64,000 nt of DNA from a virus (IMGVR_UViG_3300030419_007641:132878-196877), one strand, 5' to 3'; shown: positions 39,588 to 55,367, counted from the stretch's first letter. Numbers and translations: made by a program. Notes: generated by a model not told the origin, from the letters alone.

Positions 39588-41114
39588 ATGAATAACAAAC
39601 CACAATCATTTATCGATAGAGATAGAGCAGACTTACTTCTTGAGAAGTGGGCACCTGTTCTTGACTATTCTTCTGATAGTGTTAAGCCCATTGAGGACGA
39701 TCATACCCGTTTAAATACTGCCATGCTTCTTGAGAACCAAGAAAAATGGTGTATTGAGGAAGGATCAACTGCAGGAGCAACTCCTGGAGGTTCTTTCGGT
39801 AACGGTGCTACTGTTGGTGGTGTATATAACCCCATTACCAACGATGTAAACTCCAGTGACTCTTATGCCACTGGTGATGCCCGTCTTCCAAAAGTGCTTA
39901 TTCCGATGATTCGTCGTACGTTCCCTGAGCTTATCACCAATGAAATCGTTGGTGTCCAGCCTATGTCAGGTCCTGTTGGACTTGCATTTGCCCTTCGTTA
40001 TGCTTATCAGTCCGAAAACTTAGGTACCGGTACTGATGGCACTACAACTCGCGATAGCAATACCGGTGCAGGAAATATTCCTAACACCCAAGCTACGTTA
40101 GATGAGTATAACGGAGCAGAAGGACTTCCCGCTGATGAACTTGGTTATCAATTGCTTGATACCCGGTTCACCGGTTCATCCTCTACGAGGTTGTCCGGTG
40201 CTGCAGACTGGTACTTTGCAGCACAAGATCAAGGTGTAGCTCAGATTCTTTCCGCTTTTGAGATTACTGGTAACATTCCTCAGGTTGAGGTTAAGTTCGA
40301 GAAAACAGCAGTTGAGGCCGGCACACGCCGTCTTGGCGCACGCTGGTCTGTCGAGCTTGAGCAAGACCTTAAGAACATGAATGGTATTGATATTGACGCC
40401 GAGATCACAAACGCTATGTCGTATGAGATTCAAGCTGAGATCGACCGTGAAATGCTCATGAGAATGATCCAGGCAGCTCTTGGTCAGGAAGGAACCGCCG
40501 GCTATTCTACATGGTCACCTGCTTCTGCAGATGGTCGTTGGATGGTTGAGCGTAATAGGGACTTTTATCAGCGTCTTATCATTGAAGCCAATCGCATTGC
40601 CGTACGTAACAGACGTGGAGCTGCTAACTTTGTTGTTGCTACTCCTCGTGTTTGCGCCATCCTTGAGATGCTCCCTGAATTCCAGTGGGTACCTGTACAA
40701 GGTGACGTAAATACTCAGCCTGTGGGTATTGCAAAGGTTGGTTCGCTTGGTGGAAGATTTAACGTTTACCGTGATACCAGAACTGAAGTACAGGGGAGTC
40801 CTAGTTATAACTCGCCAAGTTCAGAGGCATATTCTAGAGGAAGTGGAGGTGCACTCACCACTACTGGAATCGAGTATGCACTTCTTGGCTACAAGGGCCC
40901 TGAGTTCTACGATACTGGTATCATTTATTGTCCTTACATTCCTGTCATGGTACAGAGAACCATCGGTCCAAACGATTTTGCGCCACGCGTTGGCTTGCTT
41001 ACTCGTTATGGTGTTGTTGACAACATCTTTGGAGCGCATCTCTACTACCATGTCATTATTGTTCAGGGACTCGGTATCGCGTTCACTCCAGCTTCTCAGT
41101 CGGTGTACTTCTAA
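39588..41114 (+). CDS. gp23: Major capsid protein
   Basis: EKWAPVL, LENQE, RRTFPEL..VGVQPMSGP.GLAF, EIQAEIDRE, YCPYIP and TRYG motifs. Confidence 0.97.
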   Translation: MNNKPQSFIDRDRADLLLEKWAPVLDYSSDSVKPIEDDHTRLNTAMLLENQEKWCIEEGSTAGATPGGSFGNGATVGGVYNPITNDVNSSDSYATGDARLPKVLIPMIRRTFPELITNEIVGVQPMSGPVGLAFALRYAYQSENLGTGTDGTTTRDSNTGAGNIPNTQATLDEYNGAEGLPADELGYQLLDTRFTGSSSTRLSGAADWYFAAQDQGVAQILSAFEITGNIPQVEVKFEKTAVEAGTRRLGARWSVELEQDLKNMNGIDIDAEITNAMSYEIQAEIDREMLMRMIQAALGQEGTAGYSTWSPASADGRWMVERNRDFYQRLIIEANRIAVRNRRGAANFVVATPRVCAILEMLPEFQWVPVQGDVNTQPVGIAKVGSLGGRFNVYRDTRTEVQGSPSYNSPSSEAYSRGSGGALTTTGIEYALLGYKGPEFYDTGIIYCPYIPVMVQRTIGPNDFAPRVGLLTRYGVVDNIFGAHLYYHVIIVQGLGIAFTPASQSVYF

Positions 41115-47091: not shown

Positions 47092-48027
47092 TCACTGTTT
47101 TGGAGTTTTTATATGTGGTACATCAACTTCACTTAAAGTATGATGTAGCAACTTTTTATGAGATGCGCGCTCTGGATTAATGTCAATACCACCTCTACGA
47201 GCGTATAGACAACGTACATTTAGTTCTTCCGGATTAATTGTATCCTTTATACGCTTATAGATAGCTTCACAAATTTCTTCATGAAAGTGACACTCATCTC
47301 TGAAAGAAACAATATATTGCAACAGTGAAATAGGGTCTACAGTATTTTTACCTTTTATATAAATATAAACATCTCCCCAATCAGGTTGCGAAGTAACACG
47401 GCAATTAGACTTAAGTAAAGCGCTATGATAATAAACTTTATCTGAAGGAGCATCCTCTATCTCTTGAAGCAAGTTTGGATCTTCTGAATATACAGAAAAT
47501 TTCACCTCATCGACAGGGTATTCATCTTCTAATGTAATATAATTAGGAGTACAATCTACACTATGCATCCACTCCAGTTTTGCGTTAAACATATTAACAT
47601 CACCTAAAACTCGAGCATTACTATGCACTTTAACTAGTACTTTAGTTTCAAGGAGCGCACTTAAATCAGATGCTGCCATTTTGCTAATTTGATCTAAAAC
47701 CTCTTCTGCACTATCACCCAGTTTAGTCATGTTAAATGAGTTAAAATACAACTTAATAGACTTAGATTCAACAATATACTTACTATCACAAGAATATACA
47801 ATCTTAGCTACACCAACTACCGGTAGTCCATTATTAGTAAGAGCTGATATTTCATATCCATTCCATGTATCATTACCGACAAAAGGTAGGTTATTATCTT
47901 CTAATCCTAGATGTGTCCTATTTGATTGACGAGGCTCTCGTACAAGAAGACCCGGATCATATGATGATTTATACTCAGACGTTTGTCCTAAATGTTTACT
48001 AACATTACTATTATCAAGTTTAGCCAT
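47092..48027 (-). CDS. queF: NADPH-dependent preQ0 reductase (bimodular QueF)
   Basis: VESKSIKLYFNSFN, LKSNCRVTSQPDWG, FHEEICE and YARRGGIDINP motifs. Confidence 0.95.
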   Translation of the reverse strand: MAKLDNSNVSKHLGQTSEYKSSYDPGLLVREPRQSNRTHLGLEDNNLPFVGNDTWNGYEISALTNNGLPVVGVAKIVYSCDSKYIVESKSIKLYFNSFNMTKLGDSAEEVLDQISKMAASDLSALLETKVLVKVHSNARVLGDVNMFNAKLEWMHSVDCTPNYITLEDEYPVDEVKFSVYSEDPNLLQEIEDAPSDKVYYHSALLKSNCRVTSQPDWGDVYIYIKGKNTVDPISLLQYIVSFRDECHFHEEICEAIYKRIKDTINPEELNVRCLYARRGGIDINPERASHKKLLHHTLSEVDVPHIKTPKQ

Positions 48028-48029
48028 AA

Positions 48030-48617
48030 TTAAATTTTAATATCGATATCACGTTTAGCAAGAGTTGACTTAATAGTCTCTAATCTTTCCTCTACACTAC
48101 CCTCAAGCATTACAACTTCACTATCTATATCCCCTCTTTCGAAATATATATTAAATATATTAATAATTTGATTTCGAAATCCCTTATCTACACTTCTCTC
48201 TCCATCATCTATTAACTTTACATCTTTAGGAGATGTATAAAAAATAATGTCATATTTATCTTTTAAATTTTGCCAAATTAGTTCACAGGCATCATAACAA
48301 CGCCTACTGATTTTATTGTTATCGAGCAACCATAGAGAATATACAATACCGTCTAATCCACACCTATCAAAGATCTGATGCACACCTCTAATTAGATGAT
48401 CAGCTTTATTTTTATAAACATTTCGAACATGCTCTGTCATAATAAGCATTTGAGTTAGATCACCGCCGCTCTCATTAATAGGCATGTTATACTCACGACT
48501 TACCAGTCTTGTAACTTCAGGTACAAATTCGAATGGGTAGCTACCATTTTTTTCATATAATGCTTTGAGTAAGGTAGTTTTACCAGTACTCTGAGCTCCA
48601 GTAAACGAACAAATCAT
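48030..48617 (-). CDS. P-loop nucleotide kinase (AAA_28-like)
   Basis: GAQSTGKTT, DRCGLDGIVY and DDGER motifs. Confidence 0.75.
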   Translation of the reverse strand: MICSFTGAQSTGKTTLLKALYEKNGSYPFEFVPEVTRLVSREYNMPINESGGDLTQMLIMTEHVRNVYKNKADHLIRGVHQIFDRCGLDGIVYSLWLLDNNKISRRCYDACELIWQNLKDKYDIIFYTSPKDVKLIDDGERSVDKGFRNQIINIFNIYFERGDIDSEVVMLEGSVEERLETIKSTLAKRDIDIKI

Positions 48618-48625
48618 ACTATATA

Positions 48626-49162
48626 TTATAAGTGTTCCTTAAGAAATTCCATCCAAGCATCAAAAGACGTCTTTCTTAATGTATCATAAGTTTTATCTAT
48701 ATTGAGGACATCACGCGTTCTTGCAGATTTTTCTACTATAATCTCACCTGCATCAACCTCTGCTACTACTTTATGAACCACACTACCAATTTTAGCGTAT
48801 GAAGCTATATTTTTCCATGCACGTTTTTGCGGATCTTTACCTTTTAACTCAGGATATTTTGTTATAAGTCCCGGGTGCCCATTGTATATATTATACATCT
48901 TGCACTTATCCGGGGGCACTATTCTTAACCACCCATTTAAGGTAATGAGAGTATCTTTTTTATCGAATTGTATATCCTCTAAGATATCCAATGTTTTTGC
49001 TTCATCATTATTAACCCTAAAATCTACTTCTATATTCGGATTAACCTTGTCCAAATTAGCATTGGTAATAACAAAATCCGGTTTTCTATTTAACTTTGTA
49101 GATAGGTCAACTATCTCAGATCCTGTTTGTGAAAACAAAGCTACCCAATTTTTATATCTCAT
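48626..49162 (-). CDS. PurN-like formyltransferase, probable preQ1 formyltransferase (DpdN-like)
   Basis: LFSQTGS, L.GWLRIVP, YNGHPG and H.V..EVDAG motifs; in the same gene run as queF. Confidence 0.8.
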   Translation of the reverse strand: MRYKNWVALFSQTGSEIVDLSTKLNRKPDFVITNANLDKVNPNIEVDFRVNNDEAKTLDILEDIQFDKKDTLITLNGWLRIVPPDKCKMYNIYNGHPGLITKYPELKGKDPQKRAWKNIASYAKIGSVVHKVVAEVDAGEIIVEKSARTRDVLNIDKTYDTLRKTSFDAWMEFLKEHL

Positions 49163-49542
49163 TATAGATATGTTAATGCCAACCAGTTAATAATCAAGTG
49201 TATGGTATTGTCGCATGCGATTAAAAGCCATGCAGACAAATATTCCGGTACTTCTTTATGATACCCGGTATCTTTGCAATCTTCCCATTTATGCCAATAG
49301 CGCTTAGGCCCTAGCCTACTTTTAGCAAATACAACATATCTTGCAAGCCGGTACCGATCAATAAAAAAATGAGTTATACAAATAACTAACAACGCCCATA
49401 CAGAGGGGCATAAAATTAAAAACGGGAGCGAATATGTAAGAGCGTGCGCGGCTGCAGCCTTATTACACTTGGTCTTATTTAGCGCCATCCAATCACTCTG
49501 GAAAAGGTAGTCACCAATCAAATGTAGAATTAATTGGAGCAT
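49162..49542 (-). CDS. DUF3307-family membrane protein
   Basis: HLIGDYLFQSDWMA.NK, H..TY, THF.ID and DNTIH motifs. Confidence 0.8.
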   Translation of the reverse strand: MLQLILHLIGDYLFQSDWMALNKTKCNKAAAAHALTYSLPFLILCPSVWALLVICITHFFIDRYRLARYVVFAKSRLGPKRYWHKWEDCKDTGYHKEVPEYLSAWLLIACDNTIHLIINWLALTYL

Positions 49543-49603
49543 ATTTATTATTATTATTTTATAGTGGGAAGCCGCTTTTTCAAGGTCTATTATAAATAAT
49601 ATT

Positions 49604-49885
49604 GTGGAAGATTTTTTAAAGGTGGTAACTGACGTTGGATTTCCGATTGCAGGCGCACTAGGGTGCGGTGCTTTTGTTTTTATTATTCTAAAATTTATAC
49701 TTAATGAAATTACTAGTGGGGTGAAAGGTATAGGAGGGATGATTAAATCCTTAGAAAATAGAGTACAGACAATGAATAATGATATTGTAAAGATAGATAC
49801 ATTAGTGTCTTATGCGTTTAACAAACAACCTAATTTGGATAGATTAGCTGCAAATGAAGGAAAGGAGGATGCCAGAAAGGACTAA
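49604..49885 (+). CDS. Small single-TM + coiled-coil protein (holin-like?)
   Basis: GFPIAGALGCGAFVFIILKFIL followed by a heptad region; TATAAATA upstream. Confidence 0.6.
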   Translation: MEDFLKVVTDVGFPIAGALGCGAFVFIILKFILNEITSGVKGIGGMIKSLENRVQTMNNDIVKIDTLVSYAFNKQPNLDRLAANEGKEDARKD

Positions 49886-50181
49886 TGAGCGAGGAAATAG
49901 TACAAGCTATTAATGATTTTGGATTTCCGGTGATTGCCGCTGCAGGACTTGGTTATTTTGTTTATTATACTTGGAATTGGGTAGTTAAAGATATTAAGCC
50001 GGTTTTAGATGAATCTACCGGTACGTTAATAGGATTAATAGATAGAATTAGAATGTTAGACAATGATATGATTAGGCTCAACACAAAGATACAGATGATC
50101 TTACAAGAACAAGAGCAACTATTGCGCACAGAAAGAAGACAGAATAGACGGAAAGAAAATGTTCTATCTGATGAGCTGTAG
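49885..50181 (+). CDS. Paralogous small TM + coiled-coil protein
   Basis: GFPVIAAAGLGYFVYY.W and RIRMLDNDMIRL, matching the upstream gene's pattern. Confidence 0.6.
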   Translation: MSEEIVQAINDFGFPVIAAAGLGYFVYYTWNWVVKDIKPVLDESTGTLIGLIDRIRMLDNDMIRLNTKIQMILQEQEQLLRTERRQNRRKENVLSDEL

Positions 50182-50211
50182 ATTATATATTAATAGGAGA
50201 TAAATACGGAC

Positions 50212-50673
50212 ATGAAATATATTTGGTTATTATTATTAATGAGTGGTAGTACCATGGCAAATGAATTAAAATTTAGGTTTAAGTCACCTTCGTTTAATGG
50301 TATTGGTTATAGCGCTCATAAAATAAATCTAGAAAATATTTCCGCCGCTAGGAAAAAGACTATAAAAGATGAACTAAAGTCTTTATCAATCCAAGCTAAT
50401 TTAGCTAACAGTAGGAAGCCGTTAAATGTATTCTTAACAAATCTCCAATCTAGAATTTATTCTGAACTCTCAAAACAAGTTACTGAGCAGCTTTTTGCTG
50501 AAACTGGTAATGATTCGGGTTCATTTGATTTAGATGGTAATATCATATCCTGGTATAAATTAGCTGATAAAATTAATTTAACAGTTACAGATACTGATGG
50601 AGATCTTACAACTATACTAATACCTGTAGGATCTCTTTTATTACCGGAACCTAATGAAGCCACTACTGAATAG
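50212..50673 (+). CDS. csgF: Curli assembly protein CsgF-like
   Basis: Signal peptide; ELKFRFKSPSF.G, LQSRIYSELS..LF and GSF.LDG motifs. Confidence 0.85.
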   Translation: MKYIWLLLLMSGSTMANELKFRFKSPSFNGIGYSAHKINLENISAARKKTIKDELKSLSIQANLANSRKPLNVFLTNLQSRIYSELSKQVTEQLFAETGNDSGSFDLDGNIISWYKLADKINLTVTDTDGDLTTILIPVGSLLLPEPNEATTE

Positions 50674-51466
50674 CCTTTTAGCCTCGACGTTACTATTTTC
50701 CGGTTGCACAGCCTTTCAAGGTGCAAAACAACCGCCATTTATCGCACCGGCACCATTAACGGAACGACTAAATAGTCTACCGGAACTAGATGGTGAACCA
50801 ATTTATTTAGGTGTTTCTAATTTTAAAGATTTAACTGGTCAAAGAAAACAGTCTGATAATTATGCTAGCTTTTCTGCTGCTGTAACTCAAGGAGCTGAAG
50901 CATGGTTAATTGAATCACTGTTAGAATCAAACGGGTGGTTTAAGGTACTAGAAAGAGGCCAACTTGATAGTATTATGCGTGAGCGCGCAGTAGTACAACA
51001 AACGCGACAAGATTTTACAGATGACGATGACACAGGGTTAAAGCCTATGCTATTTGCAGGGCTTCTGGTACATGGAGGTATTATTTCATATGATACTAAT
51101 ACTGTATCCGGGGGTATAGGTGCCGCGTATCTGGGTATTGGTGCACATGAGCAACATAGAAAGGACGTTGTAACAGTTTCTATAAGACTGGTAAGTACAT
51201 TAACTAGTGAAATTCTTTTATCATCTACAGTCTCAAAAACTATATATTCCACAGCGCTGGGCAGTGACATGTTTAAGTATGTCAAAGATGCATTAAACCC
51301 ACTAGAAATAGAAATAGGGTTTGCTAAAAATGAATTAGTTTCAGTAGCTACCAGAGCAGCCATCGATTTAGCAATATTAAATTTAATTAATAAGGGCGAA
51401 GAAAAGAAGATGTGGAAATTTAAGGAGCCTGAAATTACCGAAGAGCCTATAGAGGAAACAGAATAA
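50654..51466 (+). CDS. csgG: Curli secretion channel CsgG lipoprotein
   Basis: Lipobox LFSG-C; FKDLTGQRK, AVTQGA, WF.VLER and GGIISYDTN motifs. Confidence 0.92.
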   Translation: MKPLLNSLLASTLLFSGCTAFQGAKQPPFIAPAPLTERLNSLPELDGEPIYLGVSNFKDLTGQRKQSDNYASFSAAVTQGAEAWLIESLLESNGWFKVLERGQLDSIMRERAVVQQTRQDFTDDDDTGLKPMLFAGLLVHGGIISYDTNTVSGGIGAAYLGIGAHEQHRKDVVTVSIRLVSTLTSEILLSSTVSKTIYSTALGSDMFKYVKDALNPLEIEIGFAKNELVSVATRAAIDLAILNLINKGEEKKMWKFKEPEITEEPIEETE

Positions 51467-51493
51467 AGAGTATTTTTTTGACTAAATACTTGT

Positions 51494-52285
51494 ATGAAAT
51501 TTAAATCTCTTTTAACTGCTTTATGTTTATATGCTGGCAGTGCGCTCTTTGCTAGTAACGAAATTTACTTAGATCAAATTGGTAGTTCGGGTATTTTTAA
51601 CATATCTCAAATTGGTTCATCAAATAAATTAGGCGAAGGTACAAATCGATCAAGAATTGAAGGTGAAGAAGTTGTATTTAATGTAGCTACAATTGGTAAT
51701 GAAAATCTTATCGATATCGATTCAATTGGTAATGAGGAACTAGTAAATTTAAATCTTGAAGGTGACGCAAATGAGTTAATTCTCGCGATAGAGGGTGATA
51801 AAAATGAAGTAAACGCATTCATTGCTGGTGACTCTAACAATGTATTAATCGCAGGCAATGAAGATGATACACACAAAGCTACAGTTCATAATGGTTTAAT
51901 TAACCTAAACATCGAAGGAGCGTCTAATGATGTTGATTTATTATTATTTGATACATCATATACCTTTACCGATTATCATATTGCCGGATCATTAAATGAT
52001 GTTAGTAGTTATCAAGAAGGTCACGGAGGTCTAATTGGACATTCACAGCTAGTTGATATTTTTGGTAGTAGTAATAACTTATTGGTATCACAAGTAGGCT
52101 CTGAAAGTCAGTTTATTGAGCTCTCTATTCTAGGAAATGAAAATAACTACCAAATATTCCAAACAGATGGTGCGTTTGATCCGACATTTATGCCCGAGCA
52201 AACTGACAATAATGTCATTCCGTTTAATGAATTTAGCAACCCAGATGGTCCTCCGCAAGCCGGTGGTCAAGGCGGTAACGAGTAG
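51494..52285 (+). CDS. Curlin-like secreted beta-solenoid repeat protein
   Basis: Signal peptide; ~11-aa repeats x-h-x-h-x-(Q/I)-x-G-x-x-N (IYLDQIGSSG, FNISQIGSSN, VNLNLEGDAN and others). Confidence 0.75.
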   Translation: MKFKSLLTALCLYAGSALFASNEIYLDQIGSSGIFNISQIGSSNKLGEGTNRSRIEGEEVVFNVATIGNENLIDIDSIGNEELVNLNLEGDANELILAIEGDKNEVNAFIAGDSNNVLIAGNEDDTHKATVHNGLINLNIEGASNDVDLLLFDTSYTFTDYHIAGSLNDVSSYQEGHGGLIGHSQLVDIFGSSNNLLVSQVGSESQFIELSILGNENNYQIFQTDGAFDPTFMPEQTDNNVIPFNEFSNPDGPPQAGGQGGNE

Positions 52286-53174
52286 TTTATTATTCTTACT
52301 ATTTCTAACACCTGCTTTTGGTGAAATAGGTAATATCACCTCTCAAACTAGAGCTGCGCAAATCACTAGAAAGGGCGATAAAATATTAACTGAAGTTAAT
52401 ACGCCTGTGGAGATGCGCGACTTAATTCAAACTCTTAAAGGTAGGGCTAATATTAAATTTGTTGATGATACTAAAGTAAGTGTCACAGAATACTCAAAGT
52501 TATTAATAGATGAATTTGTTTATAATCCGGAAAAGAAGACCGGTAAACTTTCCCTTAAAGCCGCTTTAGGTACTATTAGATATTCTTCTGGTAAGATCGC
52601 AAAAAATTCTAGACAAAATGTAAAAATTAAATCGCCTACTGCTTCTGTATCTGTCAGAGGCACAGATTTTACTATGAATGTGCAAGAAGATGGTGCTACT
52701 AGTTTTTTACTTCTCCCTTCTACAGATACAGATGGAAGCTCATACGTCGGGTCTATAGATGTTTCTACACTGGGTGGTACAGTTACTTTAGATCAAGCAT
52801 ATGAAGCAACTACAGTAACAACAGCAATTGCACCGCCATCGCCTCCGCAGGTTATACAGGAAGATGGAGCAGTAAATGGTAAAAAACAAGACGTGAAAAA
52901 GGATAATAACGAAGATAAAAAGCCTACAGATGAAAAAGAGGAGGATAAATTCGACGAAATTAAAATAAAGAAAAAAGAAACACAGATTATGAACACATTT
53001 TTAAAAATGAATGATGGTCGATATGTTTTCTTTTCTAAAGATAAAGACAATATGATTTCTCTCATAGTTGAGGATGGGAGCAATGTAACAGTAAATTATG
53101 ATAACAGGGGCAGCATTATTAACGCAAAATTTAACTCAGGTAATAATGTTTTATTTAACATTAAGCAACAATGA
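52245..53174 (+). CDS. FecR-domain secreted protein
   Basis: Signal peptide from the ATG at 52245; I.F.DDT.V.V.E.S.L.IDEFVY and PTASVSVRGTDF motifs. Confidence 0.8.
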   Translation: MVLRKPVVKAVTSSLLFLLFLTPAFGEIGNITSQTRAAQITRKGDKILTEVNTPVEMRDLIQTLKGRANIKFVDDTKVSVTEYSKLLIDEFVYNPEKKTGKLSLKAALGTIRYSSGKIAKNSRQNVKIKSPTASVSVRGTDFTMNVQEDGATSFLLLPSTDTDGSSYVGSIDVSTLGGTVTLDQAYEATTVTTAIAPPSPPQVIQEDGAVNGKKQDVKKDNNEDKKPTDEKEEDKFDEIKIKKKETQIMNTFLKMNDGRYVFFSKDKDNMISLIVEDGSNVTVNYDNRGSIINAKFNSGNNVLFNIKQQ

Positions 53175-55210
53175 AAACGTTTAATATTAAAAACTATATT
53201 ATATGCATATTTTTTACTATGCTATTGGTTACATTAAGAATGGTTGACCCTTTCTTTATCGAAACATTAAGATTAAAAGGTATAGATTATTATCAAACAA
53301 AACAAGAAAAGGTATTATCAGAAAATATTTCTATTATAGAAATAGATGAAGCAAGTCTAGATAAAAATGGGCAATGGCCATGGAGTAGAGAAATAATAGC
53401 TAAAGGTGTTGAAAAGGCCTTTGCTAATGAAGCGCAATTAGTAGTTATTCCAATACTATTTGCTGAAAAAGATCGTTTGGGTGGCGATGAATATTTTACT
53501 AATGTACTAAGTGAGGCACCGGTTATTATAGGGCAGTCAGCTAGTATAAAGGGTAAGGGAAAGCCTGTCCCTAGGGGACTTGCTAATATAGGAGAAAGTT
53601 TAGATGGGTGGCTATATGATTATCCGGAGGCAATTGGACCTGTAAAAGAACTAGGGGAGCATGCTGCCGGTGTTGGTATGATATTAACGGCGCCGGAATT
53701 AGATGGTGTTGTAAGAAGACTGCCTCTAATAGTACATGTACAAGGAGAAGCCTACCCAACAATACCTTTAGAAGTAATAAGGCTATTTGCTGGCGAGCAA
53801 TCCTATCAGGCTAAAGTTGGTCTGGGTGGTGTAGAGGCTGTTAGAGTGCCTGGATTTGATCCTATTATTACAGATGCAAACTCTAGAGTGTGGTTAAACT
53901 ACAAATACGAATTTGATAAAGTATCATTTGCAGATGAAGATTGGTCAGCTGTAAGAGGTAAAATTGCCGTAATAGCATTAACAGGTGAAGGGCTTGCTAA
54001 TACAATTGCTACTTCAACTGGTGTAAAATATGGGCACGAAGTAACTAGTTCAGCGTTGCAAATGTTAATTGACGAATCTAGATTACAAAGACCTGTTGAA
54101 TCAACAGTATATGAAATATTAATAACAGCAGCATTTTGCTCTTTGCTTATTATAGGAGCTTTATGGTTATCGTACATAGCCAGCTTAGCTATAATCTCTG
54201 TTTCATTGTTTGCTGGGCCTTATATTGGTAACTGGTTGTTTAATAGTAATGGGTGGTTAATTGATTATACTTGGCCAGCTGCTTGTATTTTTATAACCTG
54301 GTCTGTGGCTACATTTATAAGATTTGTAACTGAAAGTAAATCAAAGCAACAAATTAAGAAACAATTTGAACATTATCTTGCTCCGCCTATAGTTAAGCTA
54401 TTGCAAAAAGATCCATCGTTGCTCAGACTAGGTGGAGAAACAAGAGAGCTATCTATACTGTTTAGCGATCTAAGAGGGTTTACAACAATAAGCGAACACT
54501 TTAAAGCAAACCCTCAAGGGCTTACAGAATTAGTTAACAAGTACCTAACTCCTATGACAGGATGTGTAATACAGCATAATGGTACAGTAGATAAATTTAT
54601 TGGTGACGCATTAATGGCATTCTGGAATGCTCCTCTTGATGTTGAGGATCACAAAGTACATTGTATTAATTGCGGGTTAGAAATGTTTGATTTATTAAAA
54701 AAGCTTAATAAAGAGATAAAGGATCAAGAACTACCAGAGCTGAAAATTGGAGTAGGTATTAATTCCGGAGATGTAGTTGTAGGTAACATGGGATCAGAGC
54801 AAAGATTTGACTATACATGTTTAGGTGATGCAGTAAATCTTTCCTCGAGGCTAGAGGGCCAGACTAAGGAATATGGAGTAGGTCTTATCGCAGGCCAAGG
54901 AACAGTACAAGGAATAGAAGATAAATTTAATTTTATTGAATTAGATATGATAGCAGTTAAAGGTAAAAAGGAAGGCGTGAGGATATTTACTGTACTAGAA
55001 GATGGTATAGACGTAGCACATCATAATAAATTTTTGGAGTTTTATCGGACCCGTAATTGGTCAGGCGCATTAAACTTATTGGAATTAAACATTATGACAT
55101 ATCCTAATCTCGAAACATATTATAGTATGATGAGAGAAAGGATATATCTCCTAGAAAAGTCTAATTTAGATAGCGACTGGGATACAATTTATAGAGCTAC
55201 TTCGAAGTAA
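53171..55210 (+). CDS. CHASE2-domain membrane adenylate cyclase (class III)
   Basis: IDEASL...GQWPWSR (CHASE2); TM helices; FSDLRGFT, DKFIGDA and GNMGSEQRFDYT.LGD.VN.SSRLEG; the Lys/Asp pair implies ATP specificity. Confidence 0.92.
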   Translation: MKTFNIKNYIICIFFTMLLVTLRMVDPFFIETLRLKGIDYYQTKQEKVLSENISIIEIDEASLDKNGQWPWSREIIAKGVEKAFANEAQLVVIPILFAEKDRLGGDEYFTNVLSEAPVIIGQSASIKGKGKPVPRGLANIGESLDGWLYDYPEAIGPVKELGEHAAGVGMILTAPELDGVVRRLPLIVHVQGEAYPTIPLEVIRLFAGEQSYQAKVGLGGVEAVRVPGFDPIITDANSRVWLNYKYEFDKVSFADEDWSAVRGKIAVIALTGEGLANTIATSTGVKYGHEVTSSALQMLIDESRLQRPVESTVYEILITAAFCSLLIIGALWLSYIASLAIISVSLFAGPYIGNWLFNSNGWLIDYTWPAACIFITWSVATFIRFVTESKSKQQIKKQFEHYLAPPIVKLLQKDPSLLRLGGETRELSILFSDLRGFTTISEHFKANPQGLTELVNKYLTPMTGCVIQHNGTVDKFIGDALMAFWNAPLDVEDHKVHCINCGLEMFDLLKKLNKEIKDQELPELKIGVGINSGDVVVGNMGSEQRFDYTCLGDAVNLSSRLEGQTKEYGVGLIAGQGTVQGIEDKFNFIELDMIAVKGKKEGVRIFTVLEDGIDVAHHNKFLEFYRTRNWSGALNLLELNIMTYPNLETYYSMMRERIYLLEKSNLDSDWDTIYRATSK

Positions 55211-55367
55211 AAAAGCTTACTGCTGCCCAAGCAGGTGCAACTGCTACACCTATACCTAGTAACCATACTAGCATATAGAGTAAAAATCTTAAAATAAAGT
55301 TACTAACTAAAGGAAAAAATTCTTTATCATTAGCGCGAATAATTATTTCCTGGTGTTCGCTGTTCAC
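55197..55367 (-). CDS. Small single-TM late protein, 56 aa, not in the ORF track
   Basis: GTG start; MNSEHQEIIIRANDKEFFPLVSNFILRFLLYMLVWLLGIGVAVAPAWAAVSFFTSK; TAAATA 5-6 nt upstream. Confidence 0.55.
   Translation of the reverse strand: MNSEHQEIIIRANDKEFFPLVSNFILRFLLYMLVWLLGIGVAVAPAWAAVSFFTSK

Follow-up and report, generated by a model that had tools for sequence, protein, structure and literature searches.

The stretch of DNA analysed here, IMGVR_UViG_3300030419_007641:132878-196877 (64,000 nucleotides, hereafter the window), makes up the final 64 kb of an IMG/VR virus record of 196,877 bp, the completeness of which is estimated at 93%. Between positions 49604 and 55210, seven co-directional genes on the plus strand encode two small membrane proteins (tm1 and tm2), homologues of the curli pore proteins CsgF and CsgG, a curlin-like repeat protein, a FecR-domain protein and a CHASE2-class III adenylate cyclase. 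Together they are a divergent member of the published viral type VIII (curli-like) secretion module, and no new kind of system. The initial annotation had listed the same seven genes, and Pfam and PHROG domain matches confirmed this list; the module that it had drawn up to 55367, however, ends with the cyclase gene at 55210. The open reading frame (ORF) at 55197-55367 lies on the minus strand, converges on the cyclase gene and is found in close relatives only, and is therefore a neighbour, not an operon member.

Table 1 Features of the curli-like module in the window and of cyclic nucleotide monophosphate (cNMP)-binding proteins in relatives
Feature	Position	Strand	Description
TATAAATA late-promoter-like motif	49591..49598	+	TAAATA core at 49593, 11 nt before the tm1 GTG at 49604; in a divergent intergenic gap
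tm1	49604..49885	+	93 aa, single-pass; GTG start; phrog_18771, E 6.5e-28, unknown function
tm2	49885..50181	+	98-aa paralogue of tm1; phrog_18771, E 3.4e-30; start overlaps tm1 stop
TAAATA	50201..50206	+	11 nt before csgF ATG
CsgF homologue	50212..50673	+	153 aa; ATG start; PF10614, E 1.7e-16, 61 bits vs cut-off 25.8; phrog_35372
CsgG homologue	50654..51466	+	270-aa lipoprotein, lipobox LFSG-C; PF03783, E 4.6e-48; overlaps csgF by 20 nt
TAAATA	51483..51488	+	11 nt before curlin gene ATG
Curlin-like repeat protein	51494..52285	+	263 aa; ATG start; signal peptide, about nine 22-residue turns, Pro/Gly-rich tail at 234-263
FecR-domain protein	52245..53174	+	Secreted; PF04773, E 1.3e-9; phrog_37870; overlaps repeat gene
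CHASE2-class III adenylate cyclase	53171..55210	+	679 aa; CHASE2 PF05226, E 4.6e-34 (residues 17-327); Guanylate_cyc, E 9.9e-21
Single-transmembrane ORF	55197..55367	-	56 aa; own TAAATA at -12
cNMP-binding protein, relative	L166:1378-2040 (record of L032)		Divergent beside csgF, in the place of tm1/tm2
cNMP-binding protein, relative	L058:513-1157	-	Divergent beside csgF, in the place of tm1/tm2

The two pore proteins were the most readily recognised components. The CsgF homologue has a visible signal peptide, and its mature N-terminus carries the motif F-x-F-K-S-P-S-F-N-G, which is conserved across relatives and resembles the CsgG-binding peptide of Escherichia coli CsgF; a phmmer search with this protein found no match among PDB sequences. 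The CsgG homologue aligned with the E. coli CsgG structures 3x2r/6l7a over residues 8-257 (E 1.8e-38), including the lipobox Cys, and differs from E. coli CsgG in an altered constriction loop. Since it scored 141.6 bits against an NCBIfam equivalog cut-off of 505 bits, we refer to it as a homologue and make no orthologue call. Signal-peptide-like N-termini were also found on the repeat protein and the FecR-domain protein, so that the export signals previously annotated on all four proteins were borne out.

The repeat protein is built from half-repeats, each of 11 residues and of the G-x-x-N type (lag-11 autocorrelation z 4.1). On its own, it matched no Pfam or PHROG family above threshold. A family profile built from a 30-member alignment matched CsgA 8c50 at E 6.4e-8, and 13 of the 30 members individually matched the Pfam Curlin_rpt family. 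The AlphaFold2 (AF2) model, with a predicted local distance difference test score (pLDDT) of 81.2 and a predicted template modelling score (pTM) of 0.75, is all-beta, with stacked pairs of 7-9-residue strands and a tail that is disordered from residue 234. In an exhaustive VIA structure search with this model, the top match was Pontibacter CsgA 8c50 (Z 18.0, 187 residues aligned, 22% identity). Combining the sequence and fold evidence, we read this protein as a probable curlin-type solenoid with two strands per turn and a credible predicted CsgA-like fold, in line with its earlier designation as curlin-like. The family to which it belongs comprises at least 972 protein clusters.

The FecR reading frame is open from 52137, and the start that provides a signal peptide, the ATG at 52245, is most likely the true one. 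Behind the signal peptide, the protein consists of a beta-domain (residues ~27-205), a disordered linker rich in K, E and D, and a conserved beta C-terminal domain of 60 aa; the AF2 model is confident in the N-terminal beta domain and disordered in the charged linker. A Foldseek comparison matched the model to the periplasmic signalling domain of PupR, 6ovk (E 4e-4, probability 1.0, root-mean-square deviation (rmsd) 2.9 Å over 145 columns), and a periplasmic beta-domain fold is thus shared with the FecR/PupR anti-sigma regulators; the family profile found nothing significant among PDB sequences. Unlike these regulators, the window protein has only a cleavable-looking, signal-peptide-like N-terminus ahead of the FecR domain, without a cytoplasmic anti-sigma domain or a transmembrane anchor, and no gene for an extracytoplasmic function (ECF) sigma factor or a TonB-dependent transducer lies alongside. 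Residues ~29-90 of the model also superpose on a 76-residue cell-surface anchoring domain, 5ix9 (rmsd 1.0 Å, 62 columns, 24% identity, E 6.6e-3). The C-terminal domain, which ends in G-x-x-N-x-x-x-x-I-x-Q, was considered as a further curlin repeat and rejected, as the profile-profile comparison with the curlin family gave a probability of 4.7%.

The start codon of the cyclase gene overlaps the fecR stop codon (ATGA). Hydropathy peaks at residues 10-28, 316-334 and 335-353 fit an arrangement of transmembrane segment, CHASE2 domain, transmembrane bundle and cyclase domain, which is the usual CHASE2 topology. All six canonical catalytic residues are present, namely the metal-binding Asp residues D433 and D479, Lys475 in DKFIGD, the Thr of DYTCLGD, and the Asn and Arg of VNLSSR, in agreement with the initial annotation of an intact class III enzyme. 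The Lys/Thr pair is that of the class IIIb adenylate cyclases CyaB (3r5g, Pseudomonas aeruginosa) and CyaC (1wc0). The nearest PDB relative, Cya2 (2w01), has Glu at the Lys position in the alignment. Among relatives, both metal-binding Asp residues, the Lys of DKFIGD and the Arg of VNLSSR are invariant. Judging from these residues, the enzyme looks active, and its product would be cyclic AMP (cAMP). In the Melnitz-type cyclases (L001, L047 and L056), Asp replaces the Thr of DYTCLGD and Ser replaces the transition-state Asn of VNLSSR, and these enzymes may differ from the window enzyme in activity or chemistry.

The small proteins tm1 and tm2 are both single-pass, shorter than 100 aa and equipped with a coiled-coil-like tail; in tm1, a hydropathy scan placed the transmembrane segment at residues 15-33. 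Across relatives, the tm1 C-terminus is a near-invariant charged sequence, D-R-I/L-A-x-x-E/D-G-K-E/T-D-A-R-K/R-D, which reads EGKEDARKD at the end of the window protein and has no named match. The pair stays together beside the module even where it is displaced or inverted in the 80 loci that were fetched, and this constant linkage suggests that it is part of the module. The upstream small genes have been labelled histidine kinases (PMC9599517). This label was rejected for tm1 and tm2, in which no Pfam kinase domain (HisKA/HATPase_c) was found; only four longer homologues (164-238 aa) were found, none with a kinase domain. Nor did the earlier description of a holin-like pair gain support, because both proteins matched phrog_18771 and no holin family, and their neighbours in the protein atlas are unnamed viral clusters. 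Holins being highly diverse, the pair may yet belong to them outside the described families.

TAAATA motifs ahead of tm1, csgF and the curlin gene had been pointed out in the initial annotation. Each proved to lie exactly 11 nt upstream of the start codon, and the three behave like the late-gene signal of this genome. TAAATA stands exactly 11 nt before 13 long ORFs of the window, including these three and the genes for the major head protein and the prohead protease, and at -13 before the portal gene and -12 before a baseplate protein gene. The positions of the hexamer include 1045, 2373, 6542, 28134, 29963, 36116, 37813, 39712, 41226, 49593, 50201 and 51483, and several more window ORFs have it 12-14 nt before their start; some of the start codons in the whole set are GTG. 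The bare hexamer is not enriched in the window (117 seen vs ~157 expected), and neither is TATAAATA (6 occurrences vs ~15 expected); the non-random feature is the fixed placement at -11, not the abundance of the motif. Counting TAAATA at -9 to -15 in distinct relatives, we found it before tm1 in 12/23 (at -11/-12), before csgF in 23/59 (mostly at -11) and before the curlin gene in 12/51, vs only 1/29 for tm2 and 1/51 for fecR; for csgG, a looser scan for TAAATA-N4-8-start near the start codon gave 0/64. From this placement and the gene overlaps, the module divides into three units, tm1-tm2, csgF-csgG and curlin-fecR-cyclase, which, by analogy with T4-type late promoters, would be transcribed late. 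The overlapping inner genes are probably translationally coupled. A T4-type late promoter so near the start codon points to late mRNAs that, in this lineage, are leaderless or nearly so. Scans for sigma-70 promoters and terminators gave background levels, and the 81-aa late-transcription coactivator of Melnitz, a query too short to be informative, found no match in the phage record.

The carrier is a phage, as seen from the IMG/VR virus record and from the T4-like head and baseplate genes around the module. Its major head protein (39723-41111) is at most 31-33% identical to those of cultured T4-like phages, the nearest being cyanomyophages, and HTVC008M is not among the best matches; these identities place the carrier, of ~197 kb, in a deeply divergent T4-like lineage. 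The flanks of the module hold 7-deazaguanine-type genes (QueF and a formyltransferase-like gene) and a baseplate OB-domain protein gene, and the genes for the portal, prohead protease and major head protein lie farther upstream. Directly upstream and divergent, at 47092-49542 on the minus strand, are genes for a QueF-like nitrile reductase, a P-loop kinase-like protein, a formyltransferase-like protein and a DUF3307 membrane protein, which look like parts of a 7-deazaguanine-type pathway.

Comparison with four relatives (75-90% protein identity, synonymous sites saturated) gave ratios of nonsynonymous to synonymous substitution (dN/dS) of 0.03-0.13 for all seven genes, the ORFs of which are intact. 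By these ratios, the module is under strong purifying selection, and we consider it functional DNA, not the degraded fragment that the initial annotation had kept as an alternative.

Distant blastn and tblastn searches both led to Methylophilales phage Melnitz (MZ577097) and Pelagibacter phage HTVC008M (KC465899), the two phages that the initial annotation had named as examples of csgF/csgG carriers. The annotated order in these phages is two hypothetical proteins, CsgF, CsgG, a curlin-associated repeat protein, a FecR-domain protein, a second curlin-repeat protein and adenylate cyclase. The window module agrees with them in its components and gene order, all in one orientation, whereas its proteins are only 33-47% identical to theirs. 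It has no second curlin gene, and its cyclase gene starts within the end of fecR, an arrangement shared with a clade that contains ~40-kb contigs. A curli cluster in pelagimyophages, with a proposal of 'sibling capture', was described by Zaragoza-Solas et al. (PMC7029224). Buchholz et al. 2022 (PMC9004378) proposed a role of the Melnitz module in lysis timing. Wittmers et al. (PMC9599517) reported CsgF, CsgG, CsgA/B, FecR, an optional second CsgA/B and cyclase in podo- and myo-pelagiphages, together with module transcripts in metatranscriptomes, and proposed roles in superinfection defence, aggregation and import. Carriers also include HTVC023P-type podophages and pelagimyophage metagenome-assembled genomes (MAGs) (PMC7029224, PMC9004378, PMC9599517). 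The candidate substrate and the cAMP sensor, which the initial annotation had put forward as additions to the known pair, are therefore already annotated in HTVC008M and Melnitz, and the aggregation, superinfection-blocking and lysis-timing roles that it had suggested are likewise in print.

A search with the CsgG profile found relatives in 450 IMG/VR loci. Almost throughout the 80 loci that were fetched, the genes follow one another as csgF-csgG-curlin-fecR-(gap or second curlin)-cyclase. In a FastTree tree of the cyclases, all viral sequences formed one clade (support 100) apart from the cellular ones; the viral-versus-cellular grouping rests on this tree, which is unrooted, and we name no donor. 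The window sequence groups with L004 and L006, in a subclade to which the ~40-kb contigs also belong and which is separate from the HTVC008M/Melnitz-type subclade. Eight contigs filed under bacterial MAGs (L085, L087, L089, L091, L093, L095, L097 and L116; labelled Bacteroidota, Legionellales, Luteolibacter, Rhodobacteraceae, Pirellulales and Pelagibacter) carry the full phage module. According to PHROG annotation, L091 is a T4-like phage contig with a T4-type clamp, clamp loader, ligase and endolysin. The cyclases of these 'bacterial' contigs lie inside the viral clade, and the contigs look like mis-binned phage.

Among cellular organisms, homologues of the cyclase occur in Desulfovibrio, SAR116, several Alphaproteobacteria and other groups, and Alphaproteobacteria are among the nearest to the window enzyme. 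In at least 17 bacterial loci, the CHASE2-cyclase homologue has a FecR-domain gene as its immediate neighbour, while csgG, csgF and curlin genes are all missing from the surroundings. Judging from these neighbourhoods, the FecR and CHASE2 cyclase genes already formed a pair in bacteria, where they occur without curli genes, and this pair was borrowed intact. In Sinorhizobium meliloti, the pair consists of the CHASE2 adenylate cyclase gene cyaD1 and the FecR-domain gene SMc02177 (smc02177), and a plasmid encoding the cyclase with CHASE2 removed (pCyaD1-delta-CHASE2) gives constitutive cAMP (PMC5498481); the signal is relayed via the outer-membrane beta-barrel NsrA, which is needed for signal perception. 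A Burkholderia biofilm operon ('BiofilmReg') combines a LysM/FecR protein with a CHASE2 histidine kinase (PMC5192318). The window is similar to both in that a FecR-domain gene adjoins a CHASE2 receptor gene, with cAMP as the output in S. meliloti. It differs in that the phage pair is linked to csgG, csgF and curlin genes, and in that its FecR protein is extended by a linker and a C-terminal beta domain that the bacterial partners lack.

Two module-bearing relatives encode a putative membrane protein of ~220 aa, with a cNMP-binding domain (PF00027, E 2e-21) and a hydrophobic C-terminal segment, beside csgF (Table 1), and in the record of a third relative such a gene lies ~13 kb from the module. 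The position beside csgF in the two relatives suggests that the module family has a functional cyclic-nucleotide output.

Measured against the curli systems of E. coli and Salmonella, the window shares a CsgG lipoprotein channel, a CsgF cap with the N-terminal motif, and a predicted secreted subunit of ~22-residue strand-turn-strand repeats, and differs in that CsgB, CsgC, CsgD and CsgE were not found (CsgE by a dedicated test), and in having one subunit gene, with acidic middle repeats. We hold, with moderate confidence, that this phage exports a curlin-like fibre subunit through CsgG/CsgF late in infection, alongside a cAMP signal controlled by FecR and CHASE2. Late in infection, CsgG, CsgF, the curlin-like protein and the FecR-domain protein would be exported by Sec; the CsgG lipoprotein would make an outer-membrane channel with CsgF as the cap, and the single beta-solenoid subunit would cross it and polymerise at the cell surface. 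At the same time, cytoplasmic cAMP synthesis would be set by the FecR-domain protein in the periplasm together with the CHASE2 domain that the inner-membrane cyclase exposes there, the two acting as a two-gene sensor unit probably inherited from bacteria. The identities of the genes are near certain; we infer the late timing, the fibre export and polymerisation, the contact between FecR and CHASE2, cAMP as the product, and a benefit to the phage, which may be host aggregation or the exclusion of other phages.

Several observations weigh against this reading. No clumping was seen in cells infected with Melnitz (Buchholz et al., PMC9004378). The window repeat protein itself scored only 13 bits against PF07012 Curlin_rpt (threshold 20.7; E 0.03, at the first repeat), a Foldseek search of the PDB with its model gave nothing at E <= 0.001, and the VIA match to CsgA 8c50 has an rmsd of 8.6 Å and stands only ~1 Z above generic beta-helices of 4-12% identity. 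Its middle repeats are acidic and not Gln/Asn-rich. The CsgE family PF10627 had no match in the 197-kb record, with a positive E. coli control, in accordance with the initial annotation, and no separate CsgB-type nucleator was seen, the module having a single curlin-like gene. This phage genome encodes no cNMP-binding protein, including a receptor of the CRP type. Finally, the TAAATA-N5-start geometry, with almost no 5' leader and with GTG as one of the starts, would be unusual.

Alternatively, CsgG and CsgF might have been repurposed as a gated envelope pore that helps to time lysis in a pinholin- or secretin-like manner, possibly triggered by the cyclase, with a repeat protein that forms no fibre. 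Such a role was proposed for Melnitz, with which no clumping was seen (PMC9004378); the late-type promoter motifs, the missing CsgE gate and the two conserved small membrane proteins that always accompany the module fit it as well. We nevertheless regard a lysis pore as unlikely, because CsgG resides in the outer membrane while holins act on the inner one, tm1 and tm2 matched no holin family, the CsgG-binding motif of CsgF is conserved, and the gene for a secreted curlin-like protein, presumably co-transcribed and under purifying selection, is conserved in nearly all loci. The absence of CsgE would also fit an ungated CsgG channel that admits nutrients or cofactors to the periplasm, with FecR/CHASE2 sensing the imported compound, as has been suggested (PMC7029224, PMC9599517), and FecR domains are known from iron-citrate signalling. 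Uptake, however, leaves the conserved CsgF and curlin-like proteins unexplained, the FecR protein here has neither the anti-sigma and transmembrane parts nor a TonB-dependent transducer partner gene, and the bacterial FecR-CHASE2 pairs are not iron-linked, which makes this a rather remote alternative.

The signal itself could differ from our proposal, if the cyclase made cGMP or, as in Pycsar, a pyrimidine cyclic nucleotide, and the module served in defence or counter-defence signalling. The catalytic domain does match PADLOC PycC models (up to E 1.7e-26), and its closest PDB relative is Cya2 (2w01), which we take to be a guanylate cyclase. On the other hand, the PycC matches reflect the common class III fold, PADLOC matched nothing else in the module, where a Pycsar effector gene is also missing, and Lys475 with the Thr of DYTCLGD forms the adenine-specifying pair of class IIIb (as in CyaB 3r5g), the Lys of which is Glu in Cya2; a product other than cAMP therefore seems very unlikely. 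That the locus is a decaying host-derived fragment without function is effectively refuted. The known SAR11 and OM43 hosts lack curli genes (PMC7029224, PMC9004378), as this explanation might have it, but the reading frames are intact and constrained, the gene order is conserved across the surveyed viral loci, the viral cyclases form one well-supported clade apart from the cellular ones, and transcripts of the module are reported from metatranscriptomes (PMC9599517).

Starting from late fibre export alongside a cAMP signal, a more speculative step would join the two parts of the module into one trans-envelope relay. FecR would read the state of the CsgG/CsgF pore, or curlin in transit, and signal to the CHASE2 cyclase; a late cAMP pulse would then time a late event such as lysis or an envelope switch, with a receptor of the host as the reader or, where a lineage encodes one, the phage membrane cNMP-binding protein. 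We consider this improbable as it stands; if true, the relay would parallel the outer-membrane-to-FecR signalling of iron uptake and the NsrA-to-CHASE2 signalling of S. meliloti.

To the published module, the present analysis adds its occurrence in a deeply divergent T4-like lineage, its division into three putative late units, the prediction of a CsgA-like fold, the apparent bacterial origin of the FecR/CHASE2 pair and a linked cNMP receptor in some lineages. The module is abundant in ocean viromes, and it equips some of the most numerous bacteria of the sea, once infected, with an envelope machine that has no counterpart in the host genomes.

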